Positions 37,969-60,100 of a stretch of 64,000 nt of DNA are shown piece by piece. The notes under the pieces are model-generated. The model worked only from the letters and a program-made list of their open reading frames with translations, was not told the DNA's origin and ran no database searches. The stretch is from Candidatus Gastranaerophilales bacterium (lineage in GTDB: Bacteria; Cyanobacteriota; Vampirovibrionia; Gastranaerophilales; Gastranaerophilaceae), in assembly GCA_944326585.1 (NCBI GenBank), contig CALVEN010000007.1, positions 282 through 64,281 on the forward strand, in the 5' to 3' direction. The position numbers and the translations under genes were made by a program. The first letter of the stretch is position 1. Every line of letters starts with the position of its first letter.

Positions 37969-38063
37969 TGATATAATAAACCCAAAACAAGGAGAGTGTT
38001 GATATGACTAGTTTGAACAACGGGGGGGGGCGACTCCTCCAGGTACAGATAGCAAGGTTTTAG
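37969..38063 (+). promoter_or_regulatory. Pilin-family expression cassette 2
   Basis: TGATATAAT 37969-37977; GGAGAG 37991-37996; ATG 38004; G9 38022-38030; stop TAG 38061-38063. Short frame encodes MTSLNNGGGRLLQVQIARF*. Confidence 0.7.
38022..38030 (+). repeat. G9 homopolymer
   Basis: Nine G. Position equivalent to the other four tracts. Confidence 0.95.
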
Positions 38064-38239
38064 GCGGTATTGGTTGTGTAAAGTTACTAAGATACTATGG
38101 CACTAAGGCACTAAGAAGTAACAGAAAAGTAGGTCGGCATTACCATGCCGACAGAAAAGTTTACTGTCGGGTTAGTAACCCTGACCAACGCGTTACAGAA
38201 AGAATTGACACAACCCCTGAAACAAATTATAATTCTAAT

Positions 38240-39079
38240 ATGATAAACTATAAATCAGAAAACAAAAACGTGAGAGAAGTTCAGTGTAACCACACCCCTC
38301 ACTCTACTCACTCGACTCAAGCAAAACGTGTCGCGTTTACTCTGGCGGAGGGTGCTACGCACGTAGACATGTCAGACAACATTCGTCGTGTGGCATTCAC
38401 TCTGGCGGAAGTTTTGATAACCCTTGCCATAATAGGTATTGTGGCAGCTGTGACAATTCCGACGTTAATAACAAAGTATCAAGAGAAGCAGACAGTAACA
38501 AGGTTTAAGTGGATATATTCAACATTAGCGAATGCTTTCACTATGGCTGTTGCGGAAAACGGGGCGCCTGAAACTTGGGATTTGAATAGTGCTGAAGATA
38601 TGGCAAATATTTTGTCAAAATATATGAGAATTAGTGAAAAATGTTATAATACCGCTGGTTGTTTGCCTCCGGATTTAAATATTGTTGCATTGACTGGCGA
38701 AATGCGTTATACATTACCCGGCAATGCAAATTATGTAAAATCACGTTTTAATAACGGCATAAGCCTTATGTGGTTTGAGCCTCATAAAGGGTGCAGTTAT
38801 TCTTATATTGATACTGATGGCAACCAAATAGATGTAGAAAACAGTTGCGGCTCTTTGTACGCTTTTATCTCAACGAATCGTACAAACAGATATGGTCTTG
38901 ACCATTTTGTTTTTACAGTTACACCGAAGGGAATATTGCCGGGCGGTTATGATTATAATGACAGCAATATAAAGCGGAATTGCACAAAAAATTGGACATC
39001 CGATGGTAATACAAATGGTGCTACCTGCGGGGAATGGATAAGACGCTGGGGTAATGCGGATTATTGGTATGATAATTAA
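38240..39079 (+). CDS. Prepilin-type N-terminal cleavage/methylation-domain protein, paralog 38
   Basis: RRVAFTLAEVLITLAIIGIVAAVTIPTLITKYQEKQT. The frame is open upstream to the G9 tract. Internal ATG 38369 gives MSDNIRRVA|FTLAE. Confidence 0.85.
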   Translation: MINYKSENKNVREVQCNHTPHSTHSTQAKRVAFTLAEGATHVDMSDNIRRVAFTLAEVLITLAIIGIVAAVTIPTLITKYQEKQTVTRFKWIYSTLANAFTMAVAENGAPETWDLNSAEDMANILSKYMRISEKCYNTAGCLPPDLNIVALTGEMRYTLPGNANYVKSRFNNGISLMWFEPHKGCSYSYIDTDGNQIDVENSCGSLYAFISTNRTNRYGLDHFVFTVTPKGILPGGYDYNDSNIKRNCTKNWTSDGNTNGATCGEWIRRWGNADYWYDN

Positions 39080-39106
39080 AAAAAACCGGTTTTAAACCGG
39101 TTTTTT
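39078..39106. terminator. Bidirectional terminator
   Basis: A-run, CCGGTTTTAAACCGG hairpin, T-run, between convergent genes. Confidence 0.8.
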
Positions 39107-39605
39107 ATCTGTAGTTTGTGAATTGCAGCGGATAATCGTATTTGTCTTCGTTTTGTCTGAGCATTTGGATTACCTTTTGTAAATCGTCTTTGTCTTTGCC
39201 GGAAACTCTTACGCTGTCGCCTTGAATTGACGGCTGAACTTTCATTTTCATATCTTTAATATCAGCTGAAATCTTTTTGGCAAGCTCCGGTGTCAGACCT
39301 TTTTTGAGTTTGTAAACCTGTCTTACATTCCCGCCCAAAGCGTTTTCAACAGGCTGCGGATCCAATATTCTTATACTCAGATTTCTTTTCACGAGTTTTG
39401 ACTGCAAGATATCGTAAATGTTGCGTAATTTTGTTTCATCTTTAGTCGTTATTGTGATGGATTTGTCAGCATCCAAATTTATGTCCGAATTCGAATCTTT
39501 CAGGTCAAATCTTGATGAAACTTCGCGTTTTACCTGATCAACAGCATTTACGAGCTCTTGTCTGTCAAATTCTGATACTACATCAAAACTGCAATCTTTT
39601 GCCAT
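39105..39605 (-). CDS. yajQ: YajQ family (UPF0234) nucleotide-binding protein
   Basis: SFDVVSEFDRQELVNAVDQVKREVSSRFDLK is a typical YajQ N-terminus. ~165 aa. Confidence 0.85.
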   Translation of the reverse strand: MAKDCSFDVVSEFDRQELVNAVDQVKREVSSRFDLKDSNSDINLDADKSITITTKDETKLRNIYDILQSKLVKRNLSIRILDPQPVENALGGNVRQVYKLKKGLTPELAKKISADIKDMKMKVQPSIQGDSVRVSGKDKDDLQKVIQMLRQNEDKYDYPLQFTNYR

Positions 39606-39633
39606 AATAACCCCCTTTTTTGTAAATTATAAC

Positions 39634-39665
39634 ATAAAAAAGGTAAGAATTGAATTCTTACCTTT
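39634..39665 (-). terminator. Rho-independent terminator
   Basis: Minus strand: AAAGGTAAGAATTCAATTCTTACCTTTTTT after the 39681..40097 gene. Confidence 0.75.
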
Positions 39666-39680
39666 AAAGGGGAATGTATA

Positions 39681-40097
39681 TTAAGGGCTTTTCTTTTTAA
39701 ACAGACCGGCAAGATGATTCCATCCTTTAATAATGCCTTGTTTTGCATTATTAAATAAATTCACGCCTTTTGTTTTTGCCGTATTAAGACCTGCTTTAAT
39801 TTTTGGTCCCAATTTAGGTAAATTTATTTTCGGAGCTTTAAACTTTTTGCCCAGAAGAATCGCCGCAAGAGTTAAGATACCTCCGATTATTGCCGTATTT
39901 CTTATGGTATGTTTTGTTTCTTTATTTTTTTCTTCTAATTTTTCAAATTTGTCATTATTTAATACAGGTCGCATCGGAGCAACGCCGTAATAAGGATAAG
40001 CGCCGTACATTGGCATTATCGGCATAGGACTCATCATAAAACTGCTTGGAATATCCTGATATATTACAGGTGTTGTCATCATATTTTCAAAATCCAT
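39681..40097 (-). CDS. Hypothetical Met/Pro/Tyr-rich protein with one TM helix
   Basis: 138-aa ORF. TM segment AIIGGILTLAAILLG. Lys-rich tail. Confidence 0.5.
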   Translation of the reverse strand: MDFENMMTTPVIYQDIPSSFMMSPMPIMPMYGAYPYYGVAPMRPVLNNDKFEKLEEKNKETKHTIRNTAIIGGILTLAAILLGKKFKAPKINLPKLGPKIKAGLNTAKTKGVNLFNNAKQGIIKGWNHLAGLFKKKSP

Positions 40098-40226
40098 AAC
40101 CTAATTCTCCAATTACACATTACCTTATTTATATAAAGTTTTTTTGTTTTAACTAATTTACTTATTTTTATATTTTGTAAATTTATGTAACAACAAAACA
40201 TTTGTTTTTCGGTTATAATTAATTTT

Positions 40227-41237
40227 ATGAAACGTATTATTGATGCAAATTTAAACAGAGCCTGTGAGGCGTTGAGGGTTCTGGAAGAGATAGCAAGATT
40301 TTTGGTTGAAGATAAAAATATATCGGCTGATTTAAAAAATATCCGGCATACATTGAATTCGCTGCAGGATGCCGATTATGCAGAATTGCTTCTGGCTCGT
40401 GATACTGAGGGTGATATTGGTGTTAGTATAAAAAATCCTGATAAACGTTCGGGTATTGAAACTATTTTTAAAGCTAATATTAAGCGCTTGCAGCAGGCCT
40501 TGAGAGTTCTTGCGGAATATTGCTCCGAGAATTTTGATATGCTGGAAAATTTGCGTTATAAATCATATACTCTGGAGAAAAATATGTGGGATAAATTAAA
40601 AGAAAAATATAATAAATTTATGCTTGAGGACAAAAAACTTTATCTTGTCACAAATTCCGATAAATTTGAATCCGAGGATTTATTTTTGGATGCTGTTGCA
40701 TCAGCTTTAAAAGGCGGGGTCGATATTTTGCAGCTCAGAGAAAAAAATATGCCCGCAAATAAAATTATTGAACTCGGCAAAAAAGTCAAATTACTTTGTG
40801 CGGAATACGGTGCAACATTTATTGTGAATGACAGAGTAGATATAGCATATGTTTTGGATGCCGACGGCGTGCATTTGGGGCAGGATGATATGGATATTGA
40901 ATCCGCCAGAAAAATTCTCGGAAATAATGCAATAATCGGGATTTCAACCCATGCTCCGGCTCAAGCTCAAAAAGCTGCTGCAGATGGGGCTGATTATATA
41001 GGTATGGGACCCGTATTTACAACACCTACAAAACCCGGCAGGCAGTCAGTGGGATTAGAATATGTAAAATGGGTAAGTGAAAATATTAAAATTCCGGCGT
41101 TTGCAATCGGCGGAATTGATTTAGATAATGTTCAAGATGTAGTAAATGCAGGCGCTAAAAAGATTGCTGTTGTCAGGGCAATTATAAATTCTGATAACCC
41201 TGAAAAAGCAGCGCAGGAATTTTTGAAAGTTTTATAG
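40227..41237 (+). CDS. thiE: Thiamine-phosphate synthase with an N-terminal extension domain
   Basis: The C-terminal ~200 aa is ThiE-like (LQLREK..., VNDRVD, GVHLGQDD, GISTH, GADYIGMGPVFTTPTK, AIGGI). Confidence 0.85.
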   Translation: MKRIIDANLNRACEALRVLEEIARFLVEDKNISADLKNIRHTLNSLQDADYAELLLARDTEGDIGVSIKNPDKRSGIETIFKANIKRLQQALRVLAEYCSENFDMLENLRYKSYTLEKNMWDKLKEKYNKFMLEDKKLYLVTNSDKFESEDLFLDAVASALKGGVDILQLREKNMPANKIIELGKKVKLLCAEYGATFIVNDRVDIAYVLDADGVHLGQDDMDIESARKILGNNAIIGISTHAPAQAQKAAADGADYIGMGPVFTTPTKPGRQSVGLEYVKWVSENIKIPAFAIGGIDLDNVQDVVNAGAKKIAVVRAIINSDNPEKAAQEFLKVL

Positions 41238-41262
41238 TATAATCTTTTTAAAAGGAGATGGT

Positions 41263-42630
41263 ATGTACGGAATAATTTTAGCAGGCGGTTCAGGAAGCAG
41301 ATTGTGGCCTTTATCCAGAGAGTTGTATCCAAAACAGCTTTTGAACCTTAATTCGGATAAAAGTCTTTTGCAGACAACGTTTGAAAGGCTTAATTTGTTT
41401 TTGCCTGCTGATAAAATTTTGAGTATTACAAATACTAAACATGCGGCTAATGTTAAAATGCAGGTCGATAAAAAAAGTCTTGTATTATCAGAGCCCGTTT
41501 CAAAAAATACTGCTCCCGCAATTGCGCTTTCCGTAAAATATCTTACGGAAAAAACAAATTCCGATCCGATTGTGCTTGTTATGCCTTCAGATTTGGAAAT
41601 AAAAGATGTTGAAAAATTTCAAGAAGCTGTTAATAAGGCAGTAAGGCTTGCACAGGAAGATTTTATTGTAACTTTCGGCGTAAAGCCTTTATATCCGGAA
41701 ACAGGTTTCGGGTATATTAAGGCTGACAGTACAGGCAGAGTCGAAAAATTTGTGGAAAAACCTTCTCAAATCACAGCTCAAGATTATCTAAAAGACGGCA
41801 GTTATTTTTGGAACAGCGGTATTTTTATGTTTAAAGCCTCGGTTATTTTAAATGAAATATCCGATTTCGCTCCGGAAATTGCCTCTGTTCTCGGGAAGTT
41901 TGACTTTACTGAAAATGATAATGTTCCCTATACCGAATTTGAAAAAATGCCGAATATTTCAATAGATTATGCTGTTATGGAAAAATCCAAAAATATCTCT
42001 ATGGTGGAGCTTGAATGTGACTGGAAAGATTTGGGTTCGTGGCAGTCTATTTATGATGTGAGTAAAAAAGATTCAAACGGAAATGTTTTTGTCGGGCATG
42101 TGCTGGATAAAGATTCAAAAGGTTCTCTTGTTTACGCATCATCAAAACTCGTTGCAACTATCGGGCTTGAAGATACCGTAATTGTTGAAACGGAAGATGC
42201 GATTCTTGCGTGTAAAAAAGACAGAACGCAGGAAGTAAAAGAAATCTACGAAACTTTAAAACAGCAGCACGATGATACACAAATGGTTCATAAAACAGTT
42301 TACAGACCATGGGGATTTTATACCGTTATTGCAGCGGGAAAAGGTTTTCAGACCAAAATTATTCACGTAAATCCGGGGCAGAAATTATCCGTGCAGTCGC
42401 ATAATTTCAGAAGTGAACACTGGGTTGTTTTGAGCGGTACGGCAAAAGTTGTTCTGGAAAGCAGAGATTATATTTTGTCTCCGGGACACAGTATTGATAT
42501 TCCCGTTAAAGCAATTCATTCTCTGCAGAATCCCTTTAATGAAGATGTCGAGGTTATTGAAGTTCAAAAAGGCGATGTGCTCTCAGAAGACGATATTATC
42601 AGATATGAAGATATGTACGGCAGAGTGTAG
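41263..42630 (+). CDS. manC: Mannose-1-phosphate guanylyltransferase / mannose-6-phosphate isomerase
   Basis: LAGGSGSRLWPLSR N-terminus. C-terminal cupin (YRPWG...SVQSH..RSEHWVV..G). Confidence 0.88.
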   Translation: MYGIILAGGSGSRLWPLSRELYPKQLLNLNSDKSLLQTTFERLNLFLPADKILSITNTKHAANVKMQVDKKSLVLSEPVSKNTAPAIALSVKYLTEKTNSDPIVLVMPSDLEIKDVEKFQEAVNKAVRLAQEDFIVTFGVKPLYPETGFGYIKADSTGRVEKFVEKPSQITAQDYLKDGSYFWNSGIFMFKASVILNEISDFAPEIASVLGKFDFTENDNVPYTEFEKMPNISIDYAVMEKSKNISMVELECDWKDLGSWQSIYDVSKKDSNGNVFVGHVLDKDSKGSLVYASSKLVATIGLEDTVIVETEDAILACKKDRTQEVKEIYETLKQQHDDTQMVHKTVYRPWGFYTVIAAGKGFQTKIIHVNPGQKLSVQSHNFRSEHWVVLSGTAKVVLESRDYILSPGHSIDIPVKAIHSLQNPFNEDVEVIEVQKGDVLSEDDIIRYEDMYGRV

Positions 42631-43402
42631 CCAAATCTTTGTAATAACCTTCGTCTAAAAGTTCATTGAATATTTGGGCTGATGTCGGGGCAAGCTTTTT
42701 TGCATATTCTTTATCAAGATATAATCCTTCAACAAAACGTGCAAAAAGTTCGGTCGGTCTTGCATAATATTTTTTACTTTTGTTGATTTTGGCGGAAATC
42801 CGTGCCTGTTTTTTCTGATAAGATTTTAGTCTTATATATGCTGCAAAAGCTTCCGGCATATCGGGGAAATCATTTTCTATTGTGTCTATTGTATAAATTC
42901 TTGAATCTTTCCTCCAGAATCCGCGGATTAATTTGATCCTGTCGTATTTTAAAAGGTATTTTGCATCGGATTTTTTAATATATTTTTCAAATTCTTTGAA
43001 GCGTTTTGACCGCATAAATTTCGGGTAATCCCTTTTGATAATATTTTCCTGCTCTTTTATTTTTTCTTTTACAAGATTTTTATGATATTCAAGTTTTCTG
43101 CATAATGAATTTTCATCGACAAAGTTGGTAACCTTTAATAATTCGGTTTTAATCAACGGATCGGATGTTTTAAAAAGAACCTCAAGACTGCCGCCTGTTT
43201 TTGGCATATCGGGTTCAATTTTTGAATGAACGTAGTGTGCAAATTCGTGTATCAGAGTCGGAATTTTTTTATATTCGGGCAGATTTTTCGAAATATCAAT
43301 ACGGTTTTTTAAGAAAAATCCGTGATGCCCCCGTGCTTTGGTTGTTGTGTGAATTTCTATCCCCAGACTTTTGAAATATTTAATAAGTTCCTTTGCTTCC
43401 AT
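42599..43402 (-). CDS. Hypothetical protein with an HExxH motif (possible zinc metallopeptidase)
   Basis: 267-aa ORF with LIHEFAHYVH. No other recognisable feature. Confidence 0.45.
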   Translation of the reverse strand: MEAKELIKYFKSLGIEIHTTTKARGHHGFFLKNRIDISKNLPEYKKIPTLIHEFAHYVHSKIEPDMPKTGGSLEVLFKTSDPLIKTELLKVTNFVDENSLCRKLEYHKNLVKEKIKEQENIIKRDYPKFMRSKRFKEFEKYIKKSDAKYLLKYDRIKLIRGFWRKDSRIYTIDTIENDFPDMPEAFAAYIRLKSYQKKQARISAKINKSKKYYARPTELFARFVEGLYLDKEYAKKLAPTSAQIFNELLDEGYYKDLATLCRTYLHI

Positions 43403-43440
43403 AAATTTATTATACTATAATTGCCTAAATTGATAAAGTG

Positions 43441-43510
43441 TGGTATATTATAGAAAACAAGGAGAGTGCAAATGGAAGATATGACTAATTTGAATAACGG
43501 GGGGGGAGCG
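43441..43510 (+). promoter_or_regulatory. Pilin-family expression cassette 3 (in frame)
   Basis: TGGTATATT 43441-43449; GGAGAG 43461-43466; ATG 43472 and 43481; GGGGGGGGAG 43499-43508. There is no stop afterwards. Confidence 0.7.
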
Positions 43511-44608
43511 ACTCTTCTAAGTAGGCAGGACAAGGGTTTTGACGGTATATTTTGGGAAAAGTTACTAAGATACTATGATACTAAGGCAGTAAGAAGTAAC
43601 AGAAAAGTAGGTCGGCATTACTATGCCGACAGAAAAGTTTACCGTCGGGTTAGTAAACCCGACCTACAAGAGAATATGGCTCAGAATGACAAGAATATCA
43701 TCCCTCGCCCCTTGGGGAGAGGGTGTCACGAAGTGACAGGAGAGGGGCTAAGTGACAAAAATGTGAGCAAAGCTCACAGAAAACGCTTAGTGCCTTACTG
43801 CCTTAGTAACTTAGTATCTTCACAAAAAGCCGCGTTTACCTTAGCAGAGGTTTTGATAACCCTCGGCATAATCGGTATTGTGGCAGCGATGACAATTCCG
43901 ACACTTATTACGAATTATCAGGAAAAACAAACAATTTCCAAATTACAAAAAGTCTACGCGTCTTTAAAGAATGCATTTGAACTTGCAAAAGTTGAGCATG
44001 GTGATTATGAAACCTGGTCGTGGAATCAGATTCCTGTAACCAATGGCGCGCGAACACAATATTTTTGGGAAACATATATTTTCCCGCATTTAAAGATTGC
44101 TAAAAAATGTTTCCCGATAACAACGGAATGTGTCGCAGAGGGTATTACAAAATTGAATGGTACGGCTGAATCTGTTGTTACATCTACACATGGTGCTTTT
44201 GTTTTATATGACGGTACATATGTTTATACGTGGGCTGGAGGTTCCGGTTTTCATCCGCATATTTGGGTGTATGCTGATATCAACGGTGAGGCAAAGCCAA
44301 ACGTGGTAGGCAAAGATATATTTACTATGTTTTTCTCGCCAAAAAATCCAGGGAATAAAATCGGCTCGTTTGATGACGATAATAATTTTGTTGACTCAGG
44401 AAAATTATCAACCCCTGCTTACGGATTAAGTTTGTATGGAGATGTAAACGGGGTTACCGTTGAAGATCTTATGGATCCGAATTTTGTTCTGGAAACTGAC
44501 ACAGGTGCCAAGCAAAAACATTGTTGTACCACAGAAGGCACAGGGTATATGTGCGGTGCGGCAATAAAATTAAACGGCTGGAAATTTCCCGACGGTTATC
44601 CCAGATAA
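43472..44608 (+). CDS. Prepilin-type protein, paralog 43; the whole long leader is in frame with the cassette ATG
   Basis: Single ORF MEDMTNLNNGGGATLLSRQDKGF...QKAAFTLAEVLITLGIIGIVAAMTIPTLITNYQEKQT...ADINGEAKPNVVGKDIF. Confidence 0.85.
   Translation: MEDMTNLNNGGGATLLSRQDKGFDGIFWEKLLRYYDTKAVRSNRKVGRHYYADRKVYRRVSKPDLQENMAQNDKNIIPRPLGRGCHEVTGEGLSDKNVSKAHRKRLVPYCLSNLVSSQKAAFTLAEVLITLGIIGIVAAMTIPTLITNYQEKQTISKLQKVYASLKNAFELAKVEHGDYETWSWNQIPVTNGARTQYFWETYIFPHLKIAKKCFPITTECVAEGITKLNGTAESVVTSTHGAFVLYDGTYVYTWAGGSGFHPHIWVYADINGEAKPNVVGKDIFTMFFSPKNPGNKIGSFDDDNNFVDSGKLSTPAYGLSLYGDVNGVTVEDLMDPNFVLETDTGAKQKHCCTTEGTGYMCGAAIKLNGWKFPDGYPR
43499..43506 (+). repeat. G8 homopolymer followed by A-G (an interrupted 10-nt tract)
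   Basis: GGGGGGGGAG occupies the position where the OFF copies have G9. Confidence 0.95.
43517..43872 (+). repeat. 356-bp leader cassette, apparently identical to 51052..51407
   Basis: A by-eye base-by-base comparison found no mismatch between the two intervals. The flanks diverge at once on both sides. Confidence 0.8.
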
Positions 44609-44610
44609 AG

Positions 44611-44634
44611 AAAGCTCCCTTCGGGGAGTTTTTT
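44611..44634 (+). terminator. Rho-independent terminator
   Basis: AAAGCTCCCTTCGGGGAGTTTTTT. Confidence 0.85.
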
Positions 44635-44721
44635 GTTTACATATTTTAAAATATTTACATCATACGGTTGTAGTTGTATTATTATTTTAGTAGACAATTA
44701 CAGACTTTGAGGAATTAAAAA

Positions 44722-46044
44722 TTGGTTGAAAAATTTTATATAAAAGGCGGAACTCCGCTCAGAGGTGAGGTTTTGATAGGCGGCGCAAAAAATTCAGTCC
44801 TGAAATTAATGGCTGCGGCACTTCTGGCAAAAGGTGAATCAAAAATTTATAATGTGCCTGAATTGACTGATGTTGAAATTATGCTTCAAGTTATCAACAG
44901 TTTAGGTGTTAAAACTTCATATAATAAAGAAGAAAAATCTTTAACAATTGATGCGACAGAGATTACGAATATTACCGCGAAATATGAACTGGTAAGTAAA
45001 ATGAGGGCATCATTTAATGTTTTAGGCGCTCTTGTTTCCCGCTGCAAAGAAGCTATTGTTGCACTTCCCGGCGGATGTGCAATAGGAGAACGCAGAGTTG
45101 ATTTTCACATAAAAGGGCTTGAGGCGCTCGGTGCAAAATTAAAAATAGAAAACGGTTATGTTCATGCAAAAGCAAGCAAACTTATCGGAGCTGAAATTTG
45201 TCTGGACTTGCCGTCAGTCGGTGCGACGGAAAACTTGATGCTTGCGGGTGTTTTTGCGGAAGGCTCCACAAGAATTCAAAACGCGGCTCAGGAGCCGGAA
45301 ATCGTTGATTTGGCAAACTTTTTGAATGCAATGGGTGCGGATATTATAGGTGCCGGAACATCAGAAATTGTTATTAACGGCGTAAAACCTGAGGATATGC
45401 ACCCGATAGAATATACAACAATCCCTGACAGAATTGAGGCAGGAACTTATATGGCGGCTATTGTTGGCACTAAAGGCAAGGCCGTTATAAGAAATATTTA
45501 TCCTGCGCATTTGTCTTTTTTTACGGATAAATTATTGAAAATGGGTGCAAATATTAAGCTTGTTGACCCGACATCAATAGAAGTTTCAAATAAAAACAGA
45601 TTAAATTCAATAAATTTCGTAACCCAGCCTTATCCGGGTTTTCCGACTGATTTGCAGTCAATGGCAATGACGCTTTTGACAACTGCAAACGGTGTGGGAA
45701 TTATTACGGAAAGTTTGTATGAAAACAGATTTATGCAGGTGCCTGAATTAAGACGTATGGGAGCTGATATTCATCAGGACAGAAACCATGCCATTATAAA
45801 AGGTGTAAAAAAACTCACAGGGGCAACTCTTACGGCAAGTGACCTGAGAGCCGGTGCTGCACTTGTTGTTGCGGCATTAATGGCAGATGGCAATTCCGTT
45901 ATTGAAAAATTACATCATATAGATAGAGGATACGAAAATTTTGAAAATAAGATAAGATTGTTAGGAGGCAAAATAGAGAGAAAAGATGAGGTAATATCTC
46001 CTGTTGAGCTTACGGAGGAAATACGAAATGAGTCCTACATATAA
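44722..46044 (+). CDS. murA: UDP-N-acetylglucosamine 1-carboxyvinyltransferase
   Basis: Typical MurA blocks: IKGGTPLRGEVLIGGAKNS, LPGGCAIGERRVDFH, PYPGFPTDLQ. TTG start. Confidence 0.93.
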   Translation: MVEKFYIKGGTPLRGEVLIGGAKNSVLKLMAAALLAKGESKIYNVPELTDVEIMLQVINSLGVKTSYNKEEKSLTIDATEITNITAKYELVSKMRASFNVLGALVSRCKEAIVALPGGCAIGERRVDFHIKGLEALGAKLKIENGYVHAKASKLIGAEICLDLPSVGATENLMLAGVFAEGSTRIQNAAQEPEIVDLANFLNAMGADIIGAGTSEIVINGVKPEDMHPIEYTTIPDRIEAGTYMAAIVGTKGKAVIRNIYPAHLSFFTDKLLKMGANIKLVDPTSIEVSNKNRLNSINFVTQPYPGFPTDLQSMAMTLLTTANGVGIITESLYENRFMQVPELRRMGADIHQDRNHAIIKGVKKLTGATLTASDLRAGAALVVAALMADGNSVIEKLHHIDRGYENFENKIRLLGGKIERKDEVISPVELTEEIRNESYI

Positions 46045-46366
46045 ACGCTGGTATGATCATGACCCGTTACTTTTGGAAGTAATTGAGCTTTTGCGTAATT
46101 ATCAGAATGAATTGCATGCTCAGGCTGAAATTTTTCTGCAAAAAATTGAAGAAAAAGTTTCTAAAGAAACGGTTGACAAATTTTATGCCATGGTCAAACC
46201 CGTTAATGCCAATAACCGCTGGTATGATAAGGATCCTGTAATTTCCAAAACAGTCGAGATTTTGAGAATTGTTCCGCCGGAAGCTCAAAAGATTTGCGCT
46301 CAGAATTTTATCAAAACACTTAAAGAAATGGGTATTGATTATAAAAGCCCCAATGCTCAGCAATAA
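46028..46366 (+). CDS. Small protein with two 'RWYDxDP' repeats (paralog of 54294..54668)
   Basis: GGAGGA before ATG 46028. YKRWYDHDPLLLEVIELL and NNRWYDKDPVISKTVEIL. Confidence 0.6.
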   Translation: MSPTYKRWYDHDPLLLEVIELLRNYQNELHAQAEIFLQKIEEKVSKETVDKFYAMVKPVNANNRWYDKDPVISKTVEILRIVPPEAQKICAQNFIKTLKEMGIDYKSPNAQQ

Positions 46367-46368
46367 TA

Positions 46369-49300
46369 ATGTTAAATATTGATTGTTTATCCGGTGAAAA
46401 ATTTTTAGAATACAGAGATTATGTTAAAAAATCATGGTCTTTTGCGGTTACGGGGTTAACTTCGCTTTTAAGGCTTTTGTTAGTCAAAAATGCCCGTGAC
46501 TATTCTAAAAAGAAGATTTTACTTGTTACATCAACCGAGCAGAATGCATTAAAGTTTCAAAACGATTTTAAAAGAGGTTTTGATATTGATGCCGCGTTAA
46601 TTCCTTTTCAAAATATTTCAATGTATGAAGGAGTTTCGCCGAATTTGTATGAATATTTTGAGCAGATAAAAATTTTGCGGCAAAAACCTGATTTAGTTAT
46701 TTGTCCCGTTAAAACCTTGCTTGAAAAGTTTCCGGATGAAGAATTTTTTGAGAAAAATTCTTTAAAAATAAAAGTAGGCGATGAGGTTAATTTAAAAGAA
46801 TTAAGTCAAAAGCTTGTTAATCTCGGATACAAACGCGCCACTATGGTCAGTGATATAGCTGAATTCAGCATAAGGGGCGATATTGCGGATATTTTTTCAC
46901 TGGACGATAACCCTGTAAGAATTGAATTATGGGGAGATGAAGTTGTAGACATCAGGTATTTTAACAATGAAACTCAAAAATCAGTCGAAAAGGCAAAAGA
47001 GATTGAGATTTTACCTGTATATAAATTTGTGCTTGATGAAAACAGTCCGAAACTCAATGAAGAAGACGAAGGGTATTTTGAAGGGATTGAAGTTTATCAG
47101 AATTATTTTAATGACAACCTTGTCGGGGTTTTGGATTATTTAAAAGATTATATAATTGTTTTTGACGAAACGTCCGAAATTTACTCAAAATATGAATTTG
47201 TTGCGCAGAATTTGGAAAAACAGCTTGAAGAAAATTCGAAACTTGAGCTTTTAAAACCGTTAAAGGGCAAAAATCATTTTACTTTTGAAGAATTTTTGAG
47301 AAAAACGTCTTATTTTGTAAAAATCGGTCTTAATAATTTTATAGACGGCGAAATGGATGATATTATTGAATTTAATGCCATGCCGCTTCAAAATTTTGAG
47401 GCGAATTTAGATGCAATAGCCGATTTTATAAAAGAACATAGCCCTCTGGGAGAGGGAAGAATTTCAACGCAAGGAACTAGCGTTAGAAATTCGGGTGAGG
47501 GTGGATACAAAATAATTGTTGCAACGGATTACCCTGAACGTGTCAAGCAAATTTTGAGTGAGCGGGAAATATTTGACGTTGAATATACTGAAAGCCTTGC
47601 AAGCGCAGGATGTATTCTTGAGGATTGCAAAACAATTGTAATGACCGATAGAGAGCTGTTTAATAAACGTTCCAAAGAAATCACCGCGGCAAAACGTTCA
47701 TATTACAAGGAAAAACCGGAATTTATCGAAAATATAAATGATATTCAAGAAGGAGAATACGTTGTTCATACAATTCACGGGGTCGGGATTTACAGAGGGC
47801 TTACCCAGCAGGAGATTGACGGGCAGCTGAAAGATTACCTGACAATCGAATATGCTGCAAAAGACAGGCTTCACATCCCTGCAGAACAAATTAACATGCT
47901 TGTCAGATACCGCGGCTCCGGAAATATCAAGCCGAAACTTTCCAGAATGGGCGGTAAAGATTGGGAAAACACTAAAGCCAGGGTTAAAAAAGAAGTTGAA
48001 GCTGTTGCGTATGACCTTTTAAGGCTTTATGCAAGACGAAAAATGCAAAAAGGATTTCAGTTTTTGCCTGATACCACATGGCAGGTGGAAATGGAAGAAG
48101 CCTTTGAATTTGTTGAAACTCCCGATCAAATGCGTGCAATAAACGAAGTCAAGGCTGATATGGAAAGTGATGAGCCTATGGACAGACTAATTTGCGGGGA
48201 TGTGGGTTTTGGTAAAACTGAAGTTGCAATGAGGGCAATTTTTAAAGCCGTAACTTCCGGCAAGCAGGTGGCGGTTGTTGTTCCTACGACTATTCTTGCG
48301 CTTCAGCATTTTCAAACAATGTCTGAAAGGTTTAAGCCTTTTGGAGTTCATGTTGAATTGCTTTCAAGGTTCAGGAGTAAAAAGGAGCAGAAAGACACCG
48401 TAAAAAATCTTGCAACCGGCTCTTGTGACGTGGTAATCGGAACCCACAGGCTTTTGCAGGACGGAATTGTATTCAAAGATTTGGGGCTTCTGGTAATTGA
48501 TGAAGAACACAGATTTGGAGTAAGACATAAGGAAAAACTTAAACAACTGCGTGAAAATATTGATATTATAACGATGTCGGCAACGCCTATTCCCAGAACC
48601 CTTTATATGTCGTTATCTGGAATTAAAGATATGTCGGTTATTAATACTCCTCCAAAAAACAGGCTTCCTATAAAAACCTATGTCGGCGAGTGGAATGAAA
48701 ATATGGTTAAAAATGCCATTATCCATGAGCTTGACCGCGAAGGACAGGTTTTTTATCTTTATAATCGTGTTGAAACTATTGAAGAATTCAAATTTCATCT
48801 GCAAAAACTTGTCCCCAATGCCCGAATTGCCGTAGGACACGGACAGATGGACGAAAAACAGCTTGAAGAAGTGATAGTCGATTTTGCAAACCATGAATAT
48901 GATATTCTTCTTGCAACAACAATTATTGAAAACGGAATTGATATTCCTAATGCAAATACAATGATTATCCATGATGCCGACAGATTCGGACTTGCGCAGT
49001 TGTATCAATTAAGAGGCCGTGTCGGTCGTTCCCAAAGACAGGCTTATTGCTATTGTTTTTACAGAAAAAGTAAAGAGATTACAAAAGACGCAGTACACAG
49101 ATTAAAAGCCATAAAAGAGTTTACAACACTCGGAAGCGGTTATCAAATCGCATTAAGGGATGTCGAGATAAGAGGGGTCGGGAATATTCTCGGCACCAAG
49201 CAGCACGGCCATATGATAAATGTCGGTTTTGATACATATTGTCAGCTTCTTGAAGAAACTGTTCAGGAGCTGCAAGGTCATTATGTGGAAAAATCCGAAC

Positions 49301-49773
49301 CCACTATTGTTGATATAAATGTAACGGCATTTATTCCGGATGAATGGGTTGGGTCTGCCGATCAAAAAATGATAGAATACAAACGTCTGGCGGATGTAAA
49401 ATCTCAGCTTGAATTGGATTATATAACCGAGGAGTGGAAAGACAGATTTGCAAAACCTCCCGAAAGCGTTGAAAATTTAATAAAATTAATCAAAATCAGG
49501 CTTGCCGCAACCGATGTAAAGATTTCGCTTATACGTGAGACTTCTGAAAATATAAGGATTTATACTCCATTCACCCAGCCCGAGTGGAATATAATTCAAA
49601 AAGCGCTTCCCGGGAATATATTAAAACGTATTAAGTTCACGCTTGCGCCGAAATCTTGTGAGGAAGGCAATTCAATTGTTTTATTAAACAATTCATATAT
49701 GAATTTTGATGAAGTATTTAACATTTTAACGGATTTGTTTTATTATATTTATAAAGTCAGTCATGAATATTAA
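46369..49773 (+). CDS. mfd: Transcription-repair coupling factor Mfd
   Basis: CarD-like EGEYVVHTIHGVG. Helicase motifs GDVGFGKTEVAMRA, DEEHRFGV, MSATPIPRT. TRG motif region. Length 1134 aa. Confidence 0.95.
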   Translation: MLNIDCLSGEKFLEYRDYVKKSWSFAVTGLTSLLRLLLVKNARDYSKKKILLVTSTEQNALKFQNDFKRGFDIDAALIPFQNISMYEGVSPNLYEYFEQIKILRQKPDLVICPVKTLLEKFPDEEFFEKNSLKIKVGDEVNLKELSQKLVNLGYKRATMVSDIAEFSIRGDIADIFSLDDNPVRIELWGDEVVDIRYFNNETQKSVEKAKEIEILPVYKFVLDENSPKLNEEDEGYFEGIEVYQNYFNDNLVGVLDYLKDYIIVFDETSEIYSKYEFVAQNLEKQLEENSKLELLKPLKGKNHFTFEEFLRKTSYFVKIGLNNFIDGEMDDIIEFNAMPLQNFEANLDAIADFIKEHSPLGEGRISTQGTSVRNSGEGGYKIIVATDYPERVKQILSEREIFDVEYTESLASAGCILEDCKTIVMTDRELFNKRSKEITAAKRSYYKEKPEFIENINDIQEGEYVVHTIHGVGIYRGLTQQEIDGQLKDYLTIEYAAKDRLHIPAEQINMLVRYRGSGNIKPKLSRMGGKDWENTKARVKKEVEAVAYDLLRLYARRKMQKGFQFLPDTTWQVEMEEAFEFVETPDQMRAINEVKADMESDEPMDRLICGDVGFGKTEVAMRAIFKAVTSGKQVAVVVPTTILALQHFQTMSERFKPFGVHVELLSRFRSKKEQKDTVKNLATGSCDVVIGTHRLLQDGIVFKDLGLLVIDEEHRFGVRHKEKLKQLRENIDIITMSATPIPRTLYMSLSGIKDMSVINTPPKNRLPIKTYVGEWNENMVKNAIIHELDREGQVFYLYNRVETIEEFKFHLQKLVPNARIAVGHGQMDEKQLEEVIVDFANHEYDILLATTIIENGIDIPNANTMIIHDADRFGLAQLYQLRGRVGRSQRQAYCYCFYRKSKEITKDAVHRLKAIKEFTTLGSGYQIALRDVEIRGVGNILGTKQHGHMINVGFDTYCQLLEETVQELQGHYVEKSEPTIVDINVTAFIPDEWVGSADQKMIEYKRLADVKSQLELDYITEEWKDRFAKPPESVENLIKLIKIRLAATDVKISLIRETSENIRIYTPFTQPEWNIIQKALPGNILKRIKFTLAPKSCEEGNSIVLLNNSYMNFDEVFNILTDLFYYIYKVSHEY
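47441..47504 (-). mobile_element. GC-rich palindromic element lying in frame inside mfd
   Basis: GCCCTCTGGGAGAGGGAAGAATTTCAACGCAAGGAACTAGCGTTAGAAATTCGGGTGAGGGTGG. Its reverse complement shares CCCTCACCCGAATTTCTA...GAAATTCT.CCCTCTCCC with the intergenic copy at 63672..63726. Confidence 0.7.
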
Positions 49774-49789
49774 ATAAGGAGACATTTAT

Positions 49790-50917
49790 ATGAAGGGAAA
49801 AAAATTACTTGCAACACTTGCGGTATCGGCAGTATTGTTTGCAGGCTGCGGTCTTAAATCTCATGAGGCCGTTATTAAGGTAAATGATAAAGTCATTACT
49901 CAGGCACAATTTGACAAAGCTTTTGACAAACAGGCAGATAATTCCGTATTTGCAAGAATGGGTATAAAAATTAAAGAAAATCCAAACGGATTTATGTATT
50001 TGATGATTAAAGAAAGAGTCACCAATGAATTAATTATTAAGGCTTTATTGGACGAAGAAATCGCAAAACGTAAAATTAAAGTTACAAATGATGACGTAAA
50101 TCAAGCAGTTAAAGAAATTATTGATAAAGTAGGTTCTAAAGAACAGCTTAATTTGATATTAAAGCAAAACGGAATTACATCTTCTCAGTTTAGAAATGAT
50201 TTAAAAGAAGAAGTCAGGATGAAAAAACTTGCTTTGCAGCTGGGCGACAGCAGTGTTTCTGATGCGGAAGCAAAAAAATTCTATGACGAGAATGTCGCAA
50301 GATTCAAATATCCGGAAAAAGTCAGAGCATCGCATATTTTGGTTTCCGCAAATCCTGTTGAAATCGAAGAAATTATAACTTCTGACCCGAAAAATAAAGA
50401 TTTAAAAGCCGACGAAATTAAAATTAAAGTAAACGAAGAACTTAATGCAAGAAAAGCTAAGGCTGACAAATTATATAACGAGGCAAAGGCTGACATTGGT
50501 AATTTCGCCAAACTCGCAAAAGAAAATTCCGATGACACAACAACTGCCGTAAAAGGCGGTGATTTAGGATTTTTTGCTAAAGAAGAAATGGTTCCGGAAT
50601 TTTCAAAAGCCGCTTTTGCACAACGTCCTAATACAGTGTCACCTGTTGTTAAATCACAATACGGTTATCACATTATTCTTGTGACTGACAGAATGGAAGC
50701 CGGTCAGGAACCTTTTGAAAAAGCAAAAGTTGAAATCCAAAATTATTTGACTAATCAAAAACAACTTAAACTTCTTGATGATTTGACTGAATCTTTGAAG
50801 AAAAATGCAAAAATTGAATTTGTAAATTCAGAATATGATCCGAAAAATATTCAGGATAAGCTTCAAAAAGAAGTCAAACAGCAAGTAGAAAATGCAAAAC
50901 CGAAAGCTGAAAAATAG
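49790..50917 (+). CDS. Peptidyl-prolyl cis-trans isomerase, parvulin type (PrsA/SurA-like lipoprotein)
   Basis: Lipobox LFAGC. Parvulin domain ASHILV...GGDLGFF...SQYGYHIILV. Confidence 0.85.
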   Translation: MKGKKLLATLAVSAVLFAGCGLKSHEAVIKVNDKVITQAQFDKAFDKQADNSVFARMGIKIKENPNGFMYLMIKERVTNELIIKALLDEEIAKRKIKVTNDDVNQAVKEIIDKVGSKEQLNLILKQNGITSSQFRNDLKEEVRMKKLALQLGDSSVSDAEAKKFYDENVARFKYPEKVRASHILVSANPVEIEEIITSDPKNKDLKADEIKIKVNEELNARKAKADKLYNEAKADIGNFAKLAKENSDDTTTAVKGGDLGFFAKEEMVPEFSKAAFAQRPNTVSPVVKSQYGYHIILVTDRMEAGQEPFEKAKVEIQNYLTNQKQLKLLDDLTESLKKNAKIEFVNSEYDPKNIQDKLQKEVKQQVENAKPKAEK

Positions 50918-50922
50918 TTGAT

Positions 50923-50952
50923 AAAAAAGCACCCCGCAAGGGGTGCTTTTTT
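50923..50952 (+). terminator. Rho-independent terminator
   Basis: AAAAAAGCACCCCGCAAGGGGTGCTTTTTT. Confidence 0.88.
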
Positions 50953-50973
50953 CTTGCCAAAAATTCTAATTTT

Positions 50974-51055
50974 TGATATAATAAACCTAAAAAGAAGGAG
51001 AGCTAAAATGGAAGATATGACTAGTTTTAATAACGGGGGGGGGCGACTCTCCTAA
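50974..51055 (+). promoter_or_regulatory. Pilin-family expression cassette 4
   Basis: TGATATAAT 50974-50982; AAGGAGAG 50996-51001+; ATG 51008 and 51017; G9 51035-51043; TAA 51053-51055. Short frame encodes MEDMTSFNNGGGRLS*. Confidence 0.7.
51035..51043 (+). repeat. G9 homopolymer
   Basis: Nine G. Position equivalent to the other tracts. Confidence 0.95.
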
Positions 51056-51407
51056 GTAGGCAGGACAAGGGTTTTGACGGTATATTTTGGGAAAAGTTAC
51101 TAAGATACTATGATACTAAGGCAGTAAGAAGTAACAGAAAAGTAGGTCGGCATTACTATGCCGACAGAAAAGTTTACCGTCGGGTTAGTAAACCCGACCT
51201 ACAAGAGAATATGGCTCAGAATGACAAGAATATCATCCCTCGCCCCTTGGGGAGAGGGTGTCACGAAGTGACAGGAGAGGGGCTAAGTGACAAAAATGTG
51301 AGCAAAGCTCACAGAAAACGCTTAGTGCCTTACTGCCTTAGTAACTTAGTATCTTCACAAAAAGCCGCGTTTACCTTAGCAGAGGTTTTGATAACCCTCG
51401 GCATAAT
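51052..51407 (+). repeat. 356-bp leader cassette, apparently identical to 43517..43872
   Basis: See 43517..43872. Confidence 0.8.
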
Positions 51408-52137
51408 TGGGATAGTAGCAGCAATGACAATCCCGACGATATCGCGTAATATTCAGCATGCCGTACTAAAAAATCAATTCAAGAAATTCTACAGCACTTT
51501 CTGGCAGGCGGTAATCGGTATACAGACAAAAGGAGGCAGACCTGTACAGTGTTATTACTGGGATGGCGCAAATCCATATACGGGCAAATGCACCCCGACA
51601 TGTGATGAAGATGAAAAAAATCAATACGGTAACTGTACTGTATATAGGTGTGCGGAAACAGGAGAACCCATTCCGACGGATATAAACGGAAAGTCTTCGG
51701 AGTGCAGTGATTTTTATGAGGAATTGTTTTTAAAAACATTAAAGACAACAAAAATATGTAAAGATAAGGCATATGAACAGGGGTGCCTGCCGGAAGACTT
51801 CAGAGGTGTGGATGTTGTAAAATCAGAACAAAATCCGGATAAAGAATATGACCCTGCAGGAATTTTTGCTGATTCCCCTGTGAAAAATAATTATCCTGTC
51901 TTTGTGTTAGCTGACGGAACATATATTGTAGGTTATGCTCGTTATTTAGCGGGTTTGCCTATTTTTGTCGTGGACATAAACGGGACTAAAGGTCCAAACA
52001 AATGGGGTTATGATATATTTTCTTTTAGCTTGAGGGGTAATGCGCAAACCGGAATAAATAAATTGAATAGTGCAACTTATGCAACGGAAAAAGGCGGGAA
52101 AACTTTTCAGCAGATGCTGGACGAATGTTTTAAATAG
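51211..52137 (+). CDS. Prepilin-type protein, paralog 51
   Basis: QKAAFTLAEVLITLGIIGIVAAMTIPT, then a mature domain unrelated to paralog 43 but homologous to the partial gene at 1..546. The frame is open upstream to the G9 tract. Confidence 0.85.
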   Translation: MAQNDKNIIPRPLGRGCHEVTGEGLSDKNVSKAHRKRLVPYCLSNLVSSQKAAFTLAEVLITLGIIGIVAAMTIPTISRNIQHAVLKNQFKKFYSTFWQAVIGIQTKGGRPVQCYYWDGANPYTGKCTPTCDEDEKNQYGNCTVYRCAETGEPIPTDINGKSSECSDFYEELFLKTLKTTKICKDKAYEQGCLPEDFRGVDVVKSEQNPDKEYDPAGIFADSPVKNNYPVFVLADGTYIVGYARYLAGLPIFVVDINGTKGPNKWGYDIFSFSLRGNAQTGINKLNSATYATEKGGKTFQQMLDECFK

Positions 52138-52648
52138 TTGATAAAAACGTTACAAATTTATCGCTGTATTTTTTTTGTTTGATGAGTTTATAACCGCAAA
52201 AATCAACATCGTCAACGTGTTCCAGAATTATTATATTAGAGGCAATATTTTTTATTGCCTCTAAACTTTTTTCGTAAATCCCTGAAAAGTACGGCGGGTC
52301 AATATAGATTACGTCAAATTCGCGGTCAAATTTAGAGCAGATTTTTAAGCTGTCACCAACAAATAATTCAGGTGCATTATCAAATTTTTTAAAATTATTT
52401 TTAATGACGGCAGCGGCTTTCGGGTTCTTTTCGATTGCAACGACGGATTCAAATCCTCTGGAGATTGCTTCCAGCCCCATAATACCGGATCCCGCATACA
52501 TATCAAGAAAACTTTTGTCTTCAAAATCTATCATTGACTGCAGAGTATTAAAAACACTCATTCTCACCTTGGACAGCGTCGGACGGGTAATATTTTCATC
52601 CGGTGCGGTAATTTTTCGCCCCTTATATTTTCCTGCAGTTATAATCAT
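52130..52648 (-). CDS. rsmD: 16S rRNA (guanine966-N2)-methyltransferase
   Basis: Motifs RPTLSKVRMSVFN, DMYAGSGIMGLEAISRG, IYIDPPY. ATG 52648 chosen; the track extension to 52771 is not homologous. Confidence 0.8.
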   Translation of the reverse strand: MIITAGKYKGRKITAPDENITRPTLSKVRMSVFNTLQSMIDFEDKSFLDMYAGSGIMGLEAISRGFESVVAIEKNPKAAAVIKNNFKKFDNAPELFVGDSLKICSKFDREFDVIYIDPPYFSGIYEKSLEAIKNIASNIIILEHVDDVDFCGYKLIKQKKYSDKFVTFLSTI

Positions 52649-59948: not shown

Positions 59949-60100
59949 TAAATGCGGGATGACGTATAAGGATTGTCCAAGCTCAAGTGTAATGTCCTGC
60001 CTTTGGCAGTGCGGGATGACGTTTATAGTTTGTAGATTTATTTTTTCACAAAGATTTTTATTTTTTTGAGATGCTGAAACCAGTTCAGCATGACCGGAGG

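Follow-up and report, generated by a model that had tools for sequence, protein, structure and literature searches.

Probable gene conversion of a 5' leader cassette between pilin-like genes with poly-G tracts in an uncultured Gastranaerophilales bacterium

The opa genes of Neisseria, present at 11-12 loci, form a scattered family of surface-protein genes that have their own promoters, carry a slippery repeat (CTCTT) within the leader codons and are for the most part off at once, and opa diversity arises mostly from recombination between copies within one isolate (PMC3960869). The babA, babB and babC genes of Helicobacter pylori are paralogues with common 5' ends and divergent middle regions, in which chimeras arise through intragenomic conversion within the first ~60-240 bp, so that a 5' switch of CT repeats passes between paralogues (PMC4552749). 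In the pilE/pilS system of Neisseria, silent pilS copies without a promoter or 5' end donate segments of the mature domain to one expression locus, and this variation requires an upstream motif that forms a G-quadruplex (G4). Slipped-strand switches consisting of G8 to G11 tracts, with G9 and G10 as the commonest lengths, are found at the poly-G/C loci of Campylobacter jejuni and in the poly-G tract within the signal peptide of Neisseria pilC. The Rickettsia palindromic elements (RPEs) are palindromic repeats that lie in frame within open reading frames (ORFs) and are translated and stop-free, with no conserved protein function. Here we compare these systems with a family of pilin-like genes in a 64,000-nucleotide stretch of DNA, referred to below as the window, from a Candidatus Gastranaerophilales bacterium (GenBank assembly GCA_944326585.1, contig CALVEN010000007.1, positions 282 to 64,281 of the forward strand), and in particular with two of its members, genes C and D, whose 5' portions are identical over 356 bp. 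The closest mechanistic match to this 356-bp event is provided by the bab genes, which differ in that they encode outer-membrane adhesins from 2-3 loci per genome and have no giant leader. As in the opa family, the genes are scattered, have promoter-like sites of their own and carry a slippery repeat within the leader codons, with most copies apparently off at once. Unlike in the opa family, however, the repeat is a G homopolymer and not a pentamer, the products are not beta-barrels with a Sec signal but pilin-like proteins with a class III signal peptide, the repeat lies at a distance of up to 200 translated codons, made of hairpin modules, from the mature protein, and the part that is exchanged is the leader and not the exposed loops. 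The parts of genes C and D, including the putative ribosome-binding site (RBS), are the following.

43421-43449, + strand: promoter-like site of gene C, TTGCCT-17-TATATT with TG before the -10 element, located by a consensus scan, with -35 and -10 elements aligned with those of the paralogues.
43460-43498, + strand: RBS of gene C (AGGAGAG, 43460-43466), ATG (43472) and nine codons, MEDMTNLNN, by direct reading.
43499-43508, + strand: putative switch of gene C, G8 followed by AG (equivalent to 10 nt) and therefore interrupted by an A, with the ATG in the pilin frame (ON).
43509-43524, + strand: conserved post-tract module CGACTCTTCTAAGTAG, kept among the paralogues, by direct reading.
43517-43872, + strand: copy 1 of the 356-bp repeat, comprising the leader and the first 13 mature codons of gene C, the probable recipient in a conversion.
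43549-43810, + strand: inner segment of 262 bp, missing from gene C of strains L002 and L090, delimited by BLAST break points.
43832-43837, + strand: predicted prepilin cleavage site of gene C, Ala(-1)/Phe(+1) in ...SSQKAA/FTLAEVLITL, placed by profile matches.
43835-44608, + strand: mature pilin-like protein C from its Phe(+1) codon, with a long N-terminal helix and a beta-rich domain of DUF6613 type according to the precomputed Pfam labels of homologues.
50954-50982, + strand: promoter-like site of gene D, TTGCCA-17-TATAAT with TG, 11/12 matches in a consensus scan.
51008-51055, + strand: start ORF of gene D, MEDMTSFNNGGGRLS followed by a stop, with G9 at 51035-51043, out of the pilin frame and OFF as assembled.
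51052-51407, + strand: copy 2 of the 356-bp repeat, comprising the leader and the first mature codons of gene D, with D or a D-type paralogue as the probable donor.
51370-52137, + strand: mature pilin-like protein D from its Phe(+1) codon, a divergent paralogue of C.

Exact comparison of 43517-43872 with 51052-51407 showed 356 of 356 bases to be identical, and this is the maximal exact match between the two regions. A preliminary description of the window had noted the base-for-base identity by eye, had placed the interval between the G tract and the first codons of the hydrophobic helix, and had described the copies as direct repeats about 7.5 kb apart that flank murA, mfd and a PrsA-like gene. 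All of this was borne out by the alignment, which contains no scattered mismatches: the repeat starts 10 nt past the G tract (43499-43506), ends in the codons for ...LITLGII, and recurs in direct orientation at an offset of 7535 bp, with murA, a small ORF, mfd and a PrsA/SurA-like gene between the copies according to Pfam labels. The same description spoke of two paralogues with unrelated mature domains. The pair is real, but the window holds five such loci plus the tail of a sixth, and, although the identity does end abruptly, the mature proteins of C and D are divergent paralogues rather than unrelated, being 31% identical by BLASTP (E=3e-17) and having a common DGT...DING..PN..G.DIF motif. 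The 356-bp tract stops after mature codon 13, and the mature domains stay locus-specific. In the 5' flank of ~63 nt, which comprises the RBS, the ATG, the first nine codons and the G tract, C and D differ by 13 mismatches and by an additional 1-nt difference in length (G8AG in C and G9 in D). In the 3' flank of ~32 nt there are five synonymous differences, both genes encoding IGIVAAMTIPT, and beyond these codons C and D can be aligned only with difficulty. The complete lack of differences in 356 bp, compared with roughly 10-15% in the flanks, rules out ordinary paralogue divergence.

An identity of this kind could also arise if the repeat had been collapsed or mis-threaded and the assembler had given one gene the leader of the other. 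The short-read contigs of related strains break exactly at the cassettes, with L002 and L090 stopping at the D promoter and the L087 contig starting and stopping inside the repeat, indicating that these repeats are hard to assemble. An artefact is nonetheless extremely improbable for the window itself. Each copy was recovered with both of its unique flanks at 100% identity from other samples and projects, copy 1 on contig L084 (equal to window 41472-46608) and copy 2 on contig L083 (equal to window 49211-52163), and C-specific variants (G8AG, and CTT instead of CTC) are found within 10 nt of D-type variants, so that single reads must cover the junction. The identical 378-aa C protein is encoded on at least four contigs. 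Judged from these contigs, assembly error would be an unlikely source of the identity.

The preliminary description had proposed two origins for the repeat, recent gene conversion of the 5' module or a leader that is itself a mobile unit, and comparison of the boundaries across strains revealed a replacement of the leader that supports the first. Gene C of strains L002 and L090 has a short leader, from which 43549-43810 is absent, and its flanks are syntenic with those in the window at 98-99% identity; the empty site in these strains reads ...GGTTTAGTA/TCTTCAC.... Just 5' of the segment, the L002 and L090 alleles differ from window C at five of 32 positions, and at these positions window C equals D. 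Because the 32-bp 5' flank is also D-like, the replacement is better explained by homologous exchange than by precise transposition or insertion of a mobile unit. Among C orthologues with mature domains that are at least 90% identical, at least five leader architectures were found. The C/D leader is joined to D-type mature domains in locus F of strain L085, in L089 and in P0053, suggesting that a D-type gene was the donor and C the recipient. In L087 and L088, C equals D over at least 484 bp, but with a different set of modules that represents a third leader type; the identical tract in these strains takes in the promoter and part of the prsA terminator, and its 3' boundary lies in the same ITLG codons. 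C and D have thus been homogenised repeatedly in separate lineages, which is the signature of ongoing gene conversion. With respect to the bab genes, the converted tract in window C starts past the repeat and the switch was not transferred, whereas in L087 it was.

In sum, a sharp-edged tract of identity is located inside diverged paralogues that have both been retained, and the C locus of related strains has a different sequence at the tract between orthologous flanks. In the mechanism that we propose, a D-type leader, from D itself or from the near-identical F, would have overwritten the C leader in a recent, non-reciprocal homologous exchange, with the 5' crossover just past the poly-G tract and the 3' crossover in the conserved codons of the N-terminal pilin helix. 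A RecA-type mechanism would be expected for such an exchange, and recA is encoded in the window. Weighing against this interpretation, D and F are not separable as donors, the D locus of L087 having another leader, and both the junctions and the lengths of the G tracts were read from assembled contigs. Taken as a whole, gene conversion of C by a D-type paralogue, within an apparently switchable family of pilin-like genes whose modular leaders appear to be translated and unconstrained as protein, is likely the best explanation of the repeat.

The second proposal, of a mobile leader, was weakly supported. Inverted-repeat ends and presence or absence between strains speak for it, but the copies are essentially limited to pilin leaders. 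Stated for the inner segment, it would mean that the ~262 bp are an element resembling a miniature inverted-repeat transposable element (MITE), non-autonomous, that transposed into C with no homologous conversion. Imperfect inverted repeats at about 43567-43596 and 43791-43820 delimit the 262-bp segment, which encloses 5-6 hairpins. Imperfect terminal inverted repeats of about 27-35 bp, presence and absence at the same site between strains, and an empty site, GGTTTAGTA/TCTTCAC, that would allow for a TTAGTA duplication like that of L089 and of the A-type flanks, would all agree with transposition. However, window C is without the putative target-site duplication on the 5' side, which reads TTTTGGGAA, and the 32 bp 5' of the segment, with their five differences from the short-leader allele, are D sequence as well. 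In addition, the identical tract reaches the promoter in L087, the end modules are found almost only in pilin leaders (129 of 146 matches are in pilin-upstream regions), and no transposase was seen among the window ORFs scanned, making a MITE-like origin improbable. The inverted repeats might instead flank an inverton that turns the gene off when flipped, as they bound an in-frame segment of ~200 bp, and inverting this segment in silico places stops at codons 37-47. Such an inverton is very hard to credit, since the inner modules point the same way with respect to the gene in all copies observed, loci A, B and E have single arms, and a scan of 30 window ORFs detected no tyrosine or serine recombinase. 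As a separate observation, identity to L002 over 38223-50976 is 92.9% upstream of the C leader and 98.9% downstream of it, and identity to L090 around the C leader is 97.7% upstream and 98.7% downstream. The jump in identity to L002 may reflect a recombination breakpoint between strains at the cassette or the inclusion of the hypervariable locus B in the upstream block.

The remaining members of the family were located by a six-frame motif search of the 64-kb window for the prepilin-type sequence AFTLAEVLITL. This search resulted in five pilin-like genes, designated A to E, plus the tail of a sixth, F. In addition to C and D, the loci are the following.

15745-17087, + strand: locus A, OFF, with candidate ATG codons at 15745 and 15754, G9 at 15772-15780, a stop-free leader of 578 nt at 15781-16358, and the mature pilin from the Phe(+1) codon at 16359.
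38004-39079, + strand: locus B, OFF, with ATG at 38004, G9 at 38022-38030, a stop-free leader of 365 nt, and the mature pilin from the Phe(+1) codon at 38396.
58923-60160, - strand: locus E, OFF, with ATG at 60160-60158, G11 on the coding strand (C11 of the + strand at 60113-60123), a stop-free leader of 437 nt, and the mature pilin from Phe(+1) at 59675 down to 58923.
1-546, + strand: locus F, the 3' end of the sixth pilin-like paralogue, whose 5' cassette lies just beyond the edge of the window.

For the sixth gene, the leader could be read in the 99%-identical strain L085, where it differs from the C/D leader by 2 substitutions in 337 nt (99.4% identity). All five G or C runs of at least 7 bases in the 64 kb are located a few hundred bases 5' of the AFTLAEVLITL motifs, as G on the coding strand. 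The five loci have a common layout, consisting of a promoter-like site of sigma-70 type, TTGCC(A/T)-17-TATAAT with TG, an AAGGAG RBS, an ATG with 9-12 codons, a G tract of 8-11 bases, a leader of 326-578 nt and the prepilin motif, and the promoter, RBS and ATG can be aligned across the paralogues. In loci A-D, CGACTCTCCTAAGTAG follows directly after the G tract, and in locus E the post-tract sequence differs. The promoter-like site of gene D is directly 3' of the terminator hairpin of the prsA-like gene. Similar to the pilE/pilS system, to which the preliminary description had likened the repeat as a form of pilin antigenic variation, this family consists of pilin genes with non-reciprocal homologous transfer and a G-rich element near the gene start. 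The likeness does not extend to the way in which pilE varies. All five loci have a promoter-like site, RBS and ATG of their own, so none of them is a silent cassette; the copies are all complete genes; and what moves is the leader and not the exposed domain, the exchanged tract ending 13 mature codons in. The only G-rich element noted is the single homopolymer inside the coding start, no dedicated search for a G4 motif having been made.

Beyond the window, the protein family has 7508 database matches at E<=1e-3, labelled N_methyl plus DUF6613, and NCBIfam models match only the N-terminal pilin/pseudopilin helix. In ~1 Mb of Gastranaerophilales DNA, 57 of the 70 G runs of at least 8 bases have a prepilin motif on their own strand no more than 700 nt downstream, compared with ~2 of 70 expected by chance according to our estimate from base composition. 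On inspection of their flanks, several of the remaining runs are apparently poly-C versions or cases at contig ends. Nearly all of the sampled tracts thus belong to one gene family, unlike the Campylobacter and Neisseria poly-G/C loci, which are distributed over many unrelated genes. Inspection of flanks in L054, L058, L059, L065 and others (GTDB Gastranaerophilales) showed an apparent poly-C run in place of poly-G, which would be translated as Pro-Pro-Pro, for example in ...DCPPPENS.... A scan of JGI metagenomes with a pattern combining the start and the G tract yielded no match; assemblies in ENA and NCBI do contain the organism. The cassettes also affect the available data, as they break short-read assemblies and mislead gene callers with respect to start codons: the contigs of several strains end at the promoter/leader cassettes (L002 at its end, 12593; L090 at its end, 9435; L087 at both ends), and many database entries of the pilin family begin at an internal Met, such as MAQNDKN... 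and MITLGIIG....

If the tract length determines whether the upstream ATG is in frame with the pilin, a role that the preliminary description had not seen in the G tract it mentioned, the genes can be sorted by their frame state. In the window, only C has its ATG in the pilin frame; A, B and D need one extra G, and E needs one extra or two fewer. The C tract is interrupted (G8AG), and the ON state should thereby be stabilised, whereas C orthologues in other strains have G9 and are out of frame. In gene D, G10 would restore the frame, and the out-of-frame start ORF ends at the TAA of the post-tract module. This module contains overlapping stops for both of the non-pilin frames, TAA at 43518-43520 and TAG at 43522-43524 (TAAGTAG in C), and in out-of-frame states translation would end within five codons, at TAAGTAG. 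Among 54 tract-bearing loci, a Shine-Dalgarno-like motif followed by an ATG is found just 5' of the tract in 53, with the tract 9-30 codons past the ATG; tract lengths are 9, 10 or 11, and the frame state varies by locus. At contingency loci, a homopolymer of at least 7-8 nt in the 5' coding region shifts the frame when it gains or loses one base; the G8-G11 tracts of this family have such a placement, and the length of the tract is polymorphic at the same locus between contigs. At one syntenic locus beside cdhD, four contigs from different samples (L091-L094) have G9 and a fifth, L095, has G10. The flanks are nearly identical, the G9 form leads to a 289-aa gene call with an internal start, and the G10 form encodes an in-frame protein of 371 aa. 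ON and OFF forms, seen as full-length and truncated gene calls, both occur within 90%-identity clusters. Given the G9/G10 polymorphism at a syntenic locus, heritable slipped-strand switching is the best reading, in which changes in the length of the G tract would set the ATG in or out of the pilin frame and the tract would act within the cell as a heritable frameshift ON/OFF switch.

The frame states found in the assemblies pull the other way, as only 9 of the 54 loci are in frame and 33 are in the -1 frame relative to the ATG. A predominance of out-of-frame loci would also fit slippage during transcription or translation, and the G run could then be a site of programmed -1 ribosomal frameshifting or of transcriptional slippage, at which alleles that look out of frame are expressed and the tract length is no heritable switch. 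The run of G codons would permit perfect re-pairing of tRNA-Gly, and structured RNA is present 3' of the tract. Twelve of the 54 loci are, however, in the +1 state, in addition to the 9 in frame; G9 and G10 alleles coexist at one locus; in-frame tracts that are interrupted occur (G8AG in C and G6A in F); and both wrong frames meet stops straight after the tract. An equilibrium between G9 and G10 is, moreover, the pattern described for the poly-G contingency loci of Campylobacter. Slippage during expression is therefore very unlikely, and, with heritable switching retained, the counts of 9 in frame and 33 in -1 can be accounted for by a contraction bias together with selection that keeps most copies off, though they leave a little room for slippage of either kind.

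Between the G tract and FTLAE, the five window loci contain no stops in the pilin frame, compared with 9-18 stops in each of the other frames. The same was true of every one of 25 long leaders taken from species-representative genomes and the window: in their 8.9 kb, the pilin frame has no stop, while the other two frames have 280 and 231. Insertions and deletions in the leaders measure 9, 9, 9, 75 and 183 nt, all multiples of three; this count was limited to leader pairs of at least 93% identity, as global alignments of dissimilar leaders gave meaningless gap lengths. Substitutions per site at codon positions 1, 2 and 3 are 0.101, 0.114 and 0.110 in the leaders, and 0.13, 0.04 and 0.46 in the mature parts. 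In 29 of 138 matches between leaders, the same nucleotides are placed in different reading frames. In the AlphaFold2 (AF2) model of protein C, the predicted local distance difference test (pLDDT) score is below 50 for residues 1-118, and the predicted leader-encoded peptides include QDKGFDGIFWEK and VGRHYYADR. The leader appears to be translated and yet to be free of constraint at the protein level, the simplest reading being that pilin synthesis from the upstream ATG requires ribosomes to pass through it and that the leader peptide is disposable. A self-splicing intron or a bypassed segment between the start and the pilin was considered and rejected, since the pilin frame is open in every leader. 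With respect to the RPEs, which are inserted in many unrelated genes, the modules of this family differ in being concentrated in the leader of one family, with few in intergenic spacers. A disposable leader is consistent with the topology of prepilins, in which a cytoplasmic leader is removed by the prepilin peptidase (PMC4471445), and the long leader would presumably be a cytoplasmic N-terminal extension that is removed in the same way. The spacing of tract and cleavage motif varies continuously across the order, between 20 and about 600 nt.

The proteins were assigned as pilin-like on the basis of their N-terminus, which has a class III motif with Phe(+1), Glu(+5) and ~21 hydrophobic residues, FTLAEVLITLGIIGIVAAMTIP. 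Residues 118-141 of protein C match the Pfam N_methyl family (PF07963) with 22.3 bits against a cut-off of 21.2, and TIGR02532 is matched with 18.9-23.9 against a cut-off of 16.3; for DUF6613, protein C of the window is under the cut-off (19.8 against 24.3 bits). In the AF2 model, protein C has a continuous helix at residues 114-176 that is packed on a beta-rich domain, with pLDDT scores of 70-97 from residue ~130. Prepilin peptidase would be predicted to cleave after Ala(-1). Several observations sit less easily with a conventional prepilin. A Foldseek search of the AF2 model against the PDB gave nothing better than E=0.39 and no solved pilin resembling the globular domain, leaving the helix and the N-terminal motif as the basis of the assignment. 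Of 134 family members, 95 have Ala at -1 and 39 have Gly, and the leader, counted from the upstream ATG, is 121 aa long in C and up to ~200 aa long in A and in other genomes, whereas prepilin leaders have been reviewed as having 6-26 (up to ~30) hydrophilic residues, with Gly at -1 being critical (PMC4471445). Relatives with short leaders do exist in the family, for example P0099 (MRKLLG/FTLAE). No genes for a prepilin peptidase or for PilB/PilC-type machinery were found among the 30 window ORFs scanned; pilA, pilB, pilC, pilD and pilT have been reported for a Gastranaerophilales single-cell genome (PMC5877343).

The C/D leader is predicted to fold with -149.5 kcal/mol (z = -7.0 on the + strand and -9.3 on the - strand), with five or six hairpins meeting at a junction that is closed by an imperfect inverted repeat of ~27 bp. 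Folding as strong as that of the sense strand raises the question of whether the leader is a functional structured RNA or DNA element, such as a regulator of translation or stability or a barrier in the OFF state, with its identity maintained by selection; this explanation could coexist with conversion. Stems have 0.016-0.042 substitutions per site and loops 0.078, a two- to fivefold difference that leaves room for a role of the hairpins at the nucleic-acid level and so speaks against leaders that are free of all constraint, and long hairpin-rich leaders recur in several clades of the order. Other results disfavour a conserved element. No Rfam family was matched by the leader, as a search of 43400-43950 at E<=10 gave only two chance-level matches and a search of the whole window at the gathering score gave only the transfer-messenger RNA (tmRNA) elsewhere; readings as a group I or group II intron, a riboswitch or a known large noncoding RNA were dropped on this basis. 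When 63 substitutions were placed on the minimum free energy structure, there were 0 compensatory pairs and 10 pair-breaking changes, though with only 2-10 distinct copies per module, too few for a proper test of covariation. The entire inner structure is absent from 99%-identical orthologues, the left and right arms are found singly in loci A, B and E, the module content differs by strain through reshuffling, and the antisense strand folds better, as expected of DNA palindromes. On balance, an element kept identical by selection is unlikely.

Some of the leader hairpins look like terminators on the minus strand, and some of the modules are hairpins of a generic kind, with further copies in ordinary intergenic spacers. 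One intergenic spacer away from the pilin genes, at 63700-63880, contains hairpin modules in common with the leaders (TTCTTCGCTGGCGCTCAGAATGACA; CCCTCTCCCAGAGGGAGAGGG), indicating that the leaders consist in part of a generic palindromic repeat that is dispersed in this genome. Locus B has a duplicated cleavage motif at 38351-38395, AFTLAE-GATHVDMSDNIRRVA-FTLAEVLITL, the second half of which is a complete short leader, MSDNIRRVA, with an ATG of its own (ATG TCA GAC...). This arrangement looks like the fossil of a gene with a short leader that became fused to an upstream start carrying a G tract. The duplicated motif AFTLAE-GATHVDMSDNIRRVA-FTLAE is also present in P0015, P0045 and P0051. The leaders probably grew by unequal recombination between paralogues that captured upstream sequence in frame, and only products with a stop-free, in-frame leader would survive. 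The leader would in that case be a patchwork of palindromic nucleotide modules and fossil 5' ends, subsequently shuffled among the paralogues. Candidate roles for the hairpins are a tighter OFF state, mRNA stability and a greater length of homology for exchange.

The 356-bp event is in itself ordinary gene conversion, and the novelty resides in the surrounding system, which is a variant of known families of contingency genes. Searches of the literature on pilins or phase variation in Gastranaerophilales and Melainabacteria and on DUF6613, subscription-only papers aside, turned up no description of such a system, and the family of poly-G-switched pilin-like genes in these uncultured gut Melainabacteria is apparently undescribed. 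To our knowledge, the Melainabacteria of the human and animal gut are uncultured and their surface biology is almost wholly undescribed, and we are aware of no putative prepilin leaders longer than those found here. A more far-reaching picture, which we put forward only tentatively and which may well not hold, is that these bacteria carry dozens of switchable pilin-like genes whose class III signal peptides of 110-200 residues, four to eight times the longest described, have accreted from hairpin modules that are translated, stop-free and then cut off, and that promoter, G tract and leader together form an exchangeable cassette by which promoter strength and ON/OFF state are re-assigned among filaments. 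The hairpins might tighten the OFF state or modulate slippage. The presence of many poly-G-switched pilin-like genes implies strong and fluctuating selection on surface filaments, which could plausibly come from host immunity or from phages with pili as their receptors; a Cas12a CRISPR locus is also present in the window. If a leader of 120-200 residues ending in Ala is indeed processed, the accepted range of the prepilin peptidase would be stretched. The leader also offers a natural example of a sequence that must be translated and is free as protein, serving as a sink for palindromic modules and as a handle for recombination, and the G tracts provide a handle for following ON/OFF states in metagenomes.

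Several other features of the window were recorded. A type V-A clustered regularly interspaced short palindromic repeats (CRISPR)-Cas locus at 20402-26923 encodes Cas12a/Cpf1 (23264-26923, - strand), Cas4 (22704-23264, - strand) and Cas1 (21752-22441, - strand), and its array at 20402-21342 has at least 15 repeats (ATCTACAATAGTAGAAATTTAATATAGGTATTAAAC) with spacers of 26-29 nt. The tmRNA gene is located at 28440-28835 on the - strand (Rfam RF00023, 135.6 bits). Two syntenic, conserved ORFs could be assigned to no family: one of 267 aa at 42599-43402 (- strand), divergent from gene C and with no Pfam or NCBIfam match, and one of 120 aa at 46004-46366 (+ strand), between murA and mfd, which contains an internal direct repeat (46041-46093 and 46212-46264, 72% identity). 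A protein of 1042 aa encoded at 11458-14586 (- strand) resembles superfamily-1 helicases (AAA_11/AAA_12) and has a C-terminal nuclease-like domain (REase_MTES_1575), suggesting that it may be a defence or repair gene.

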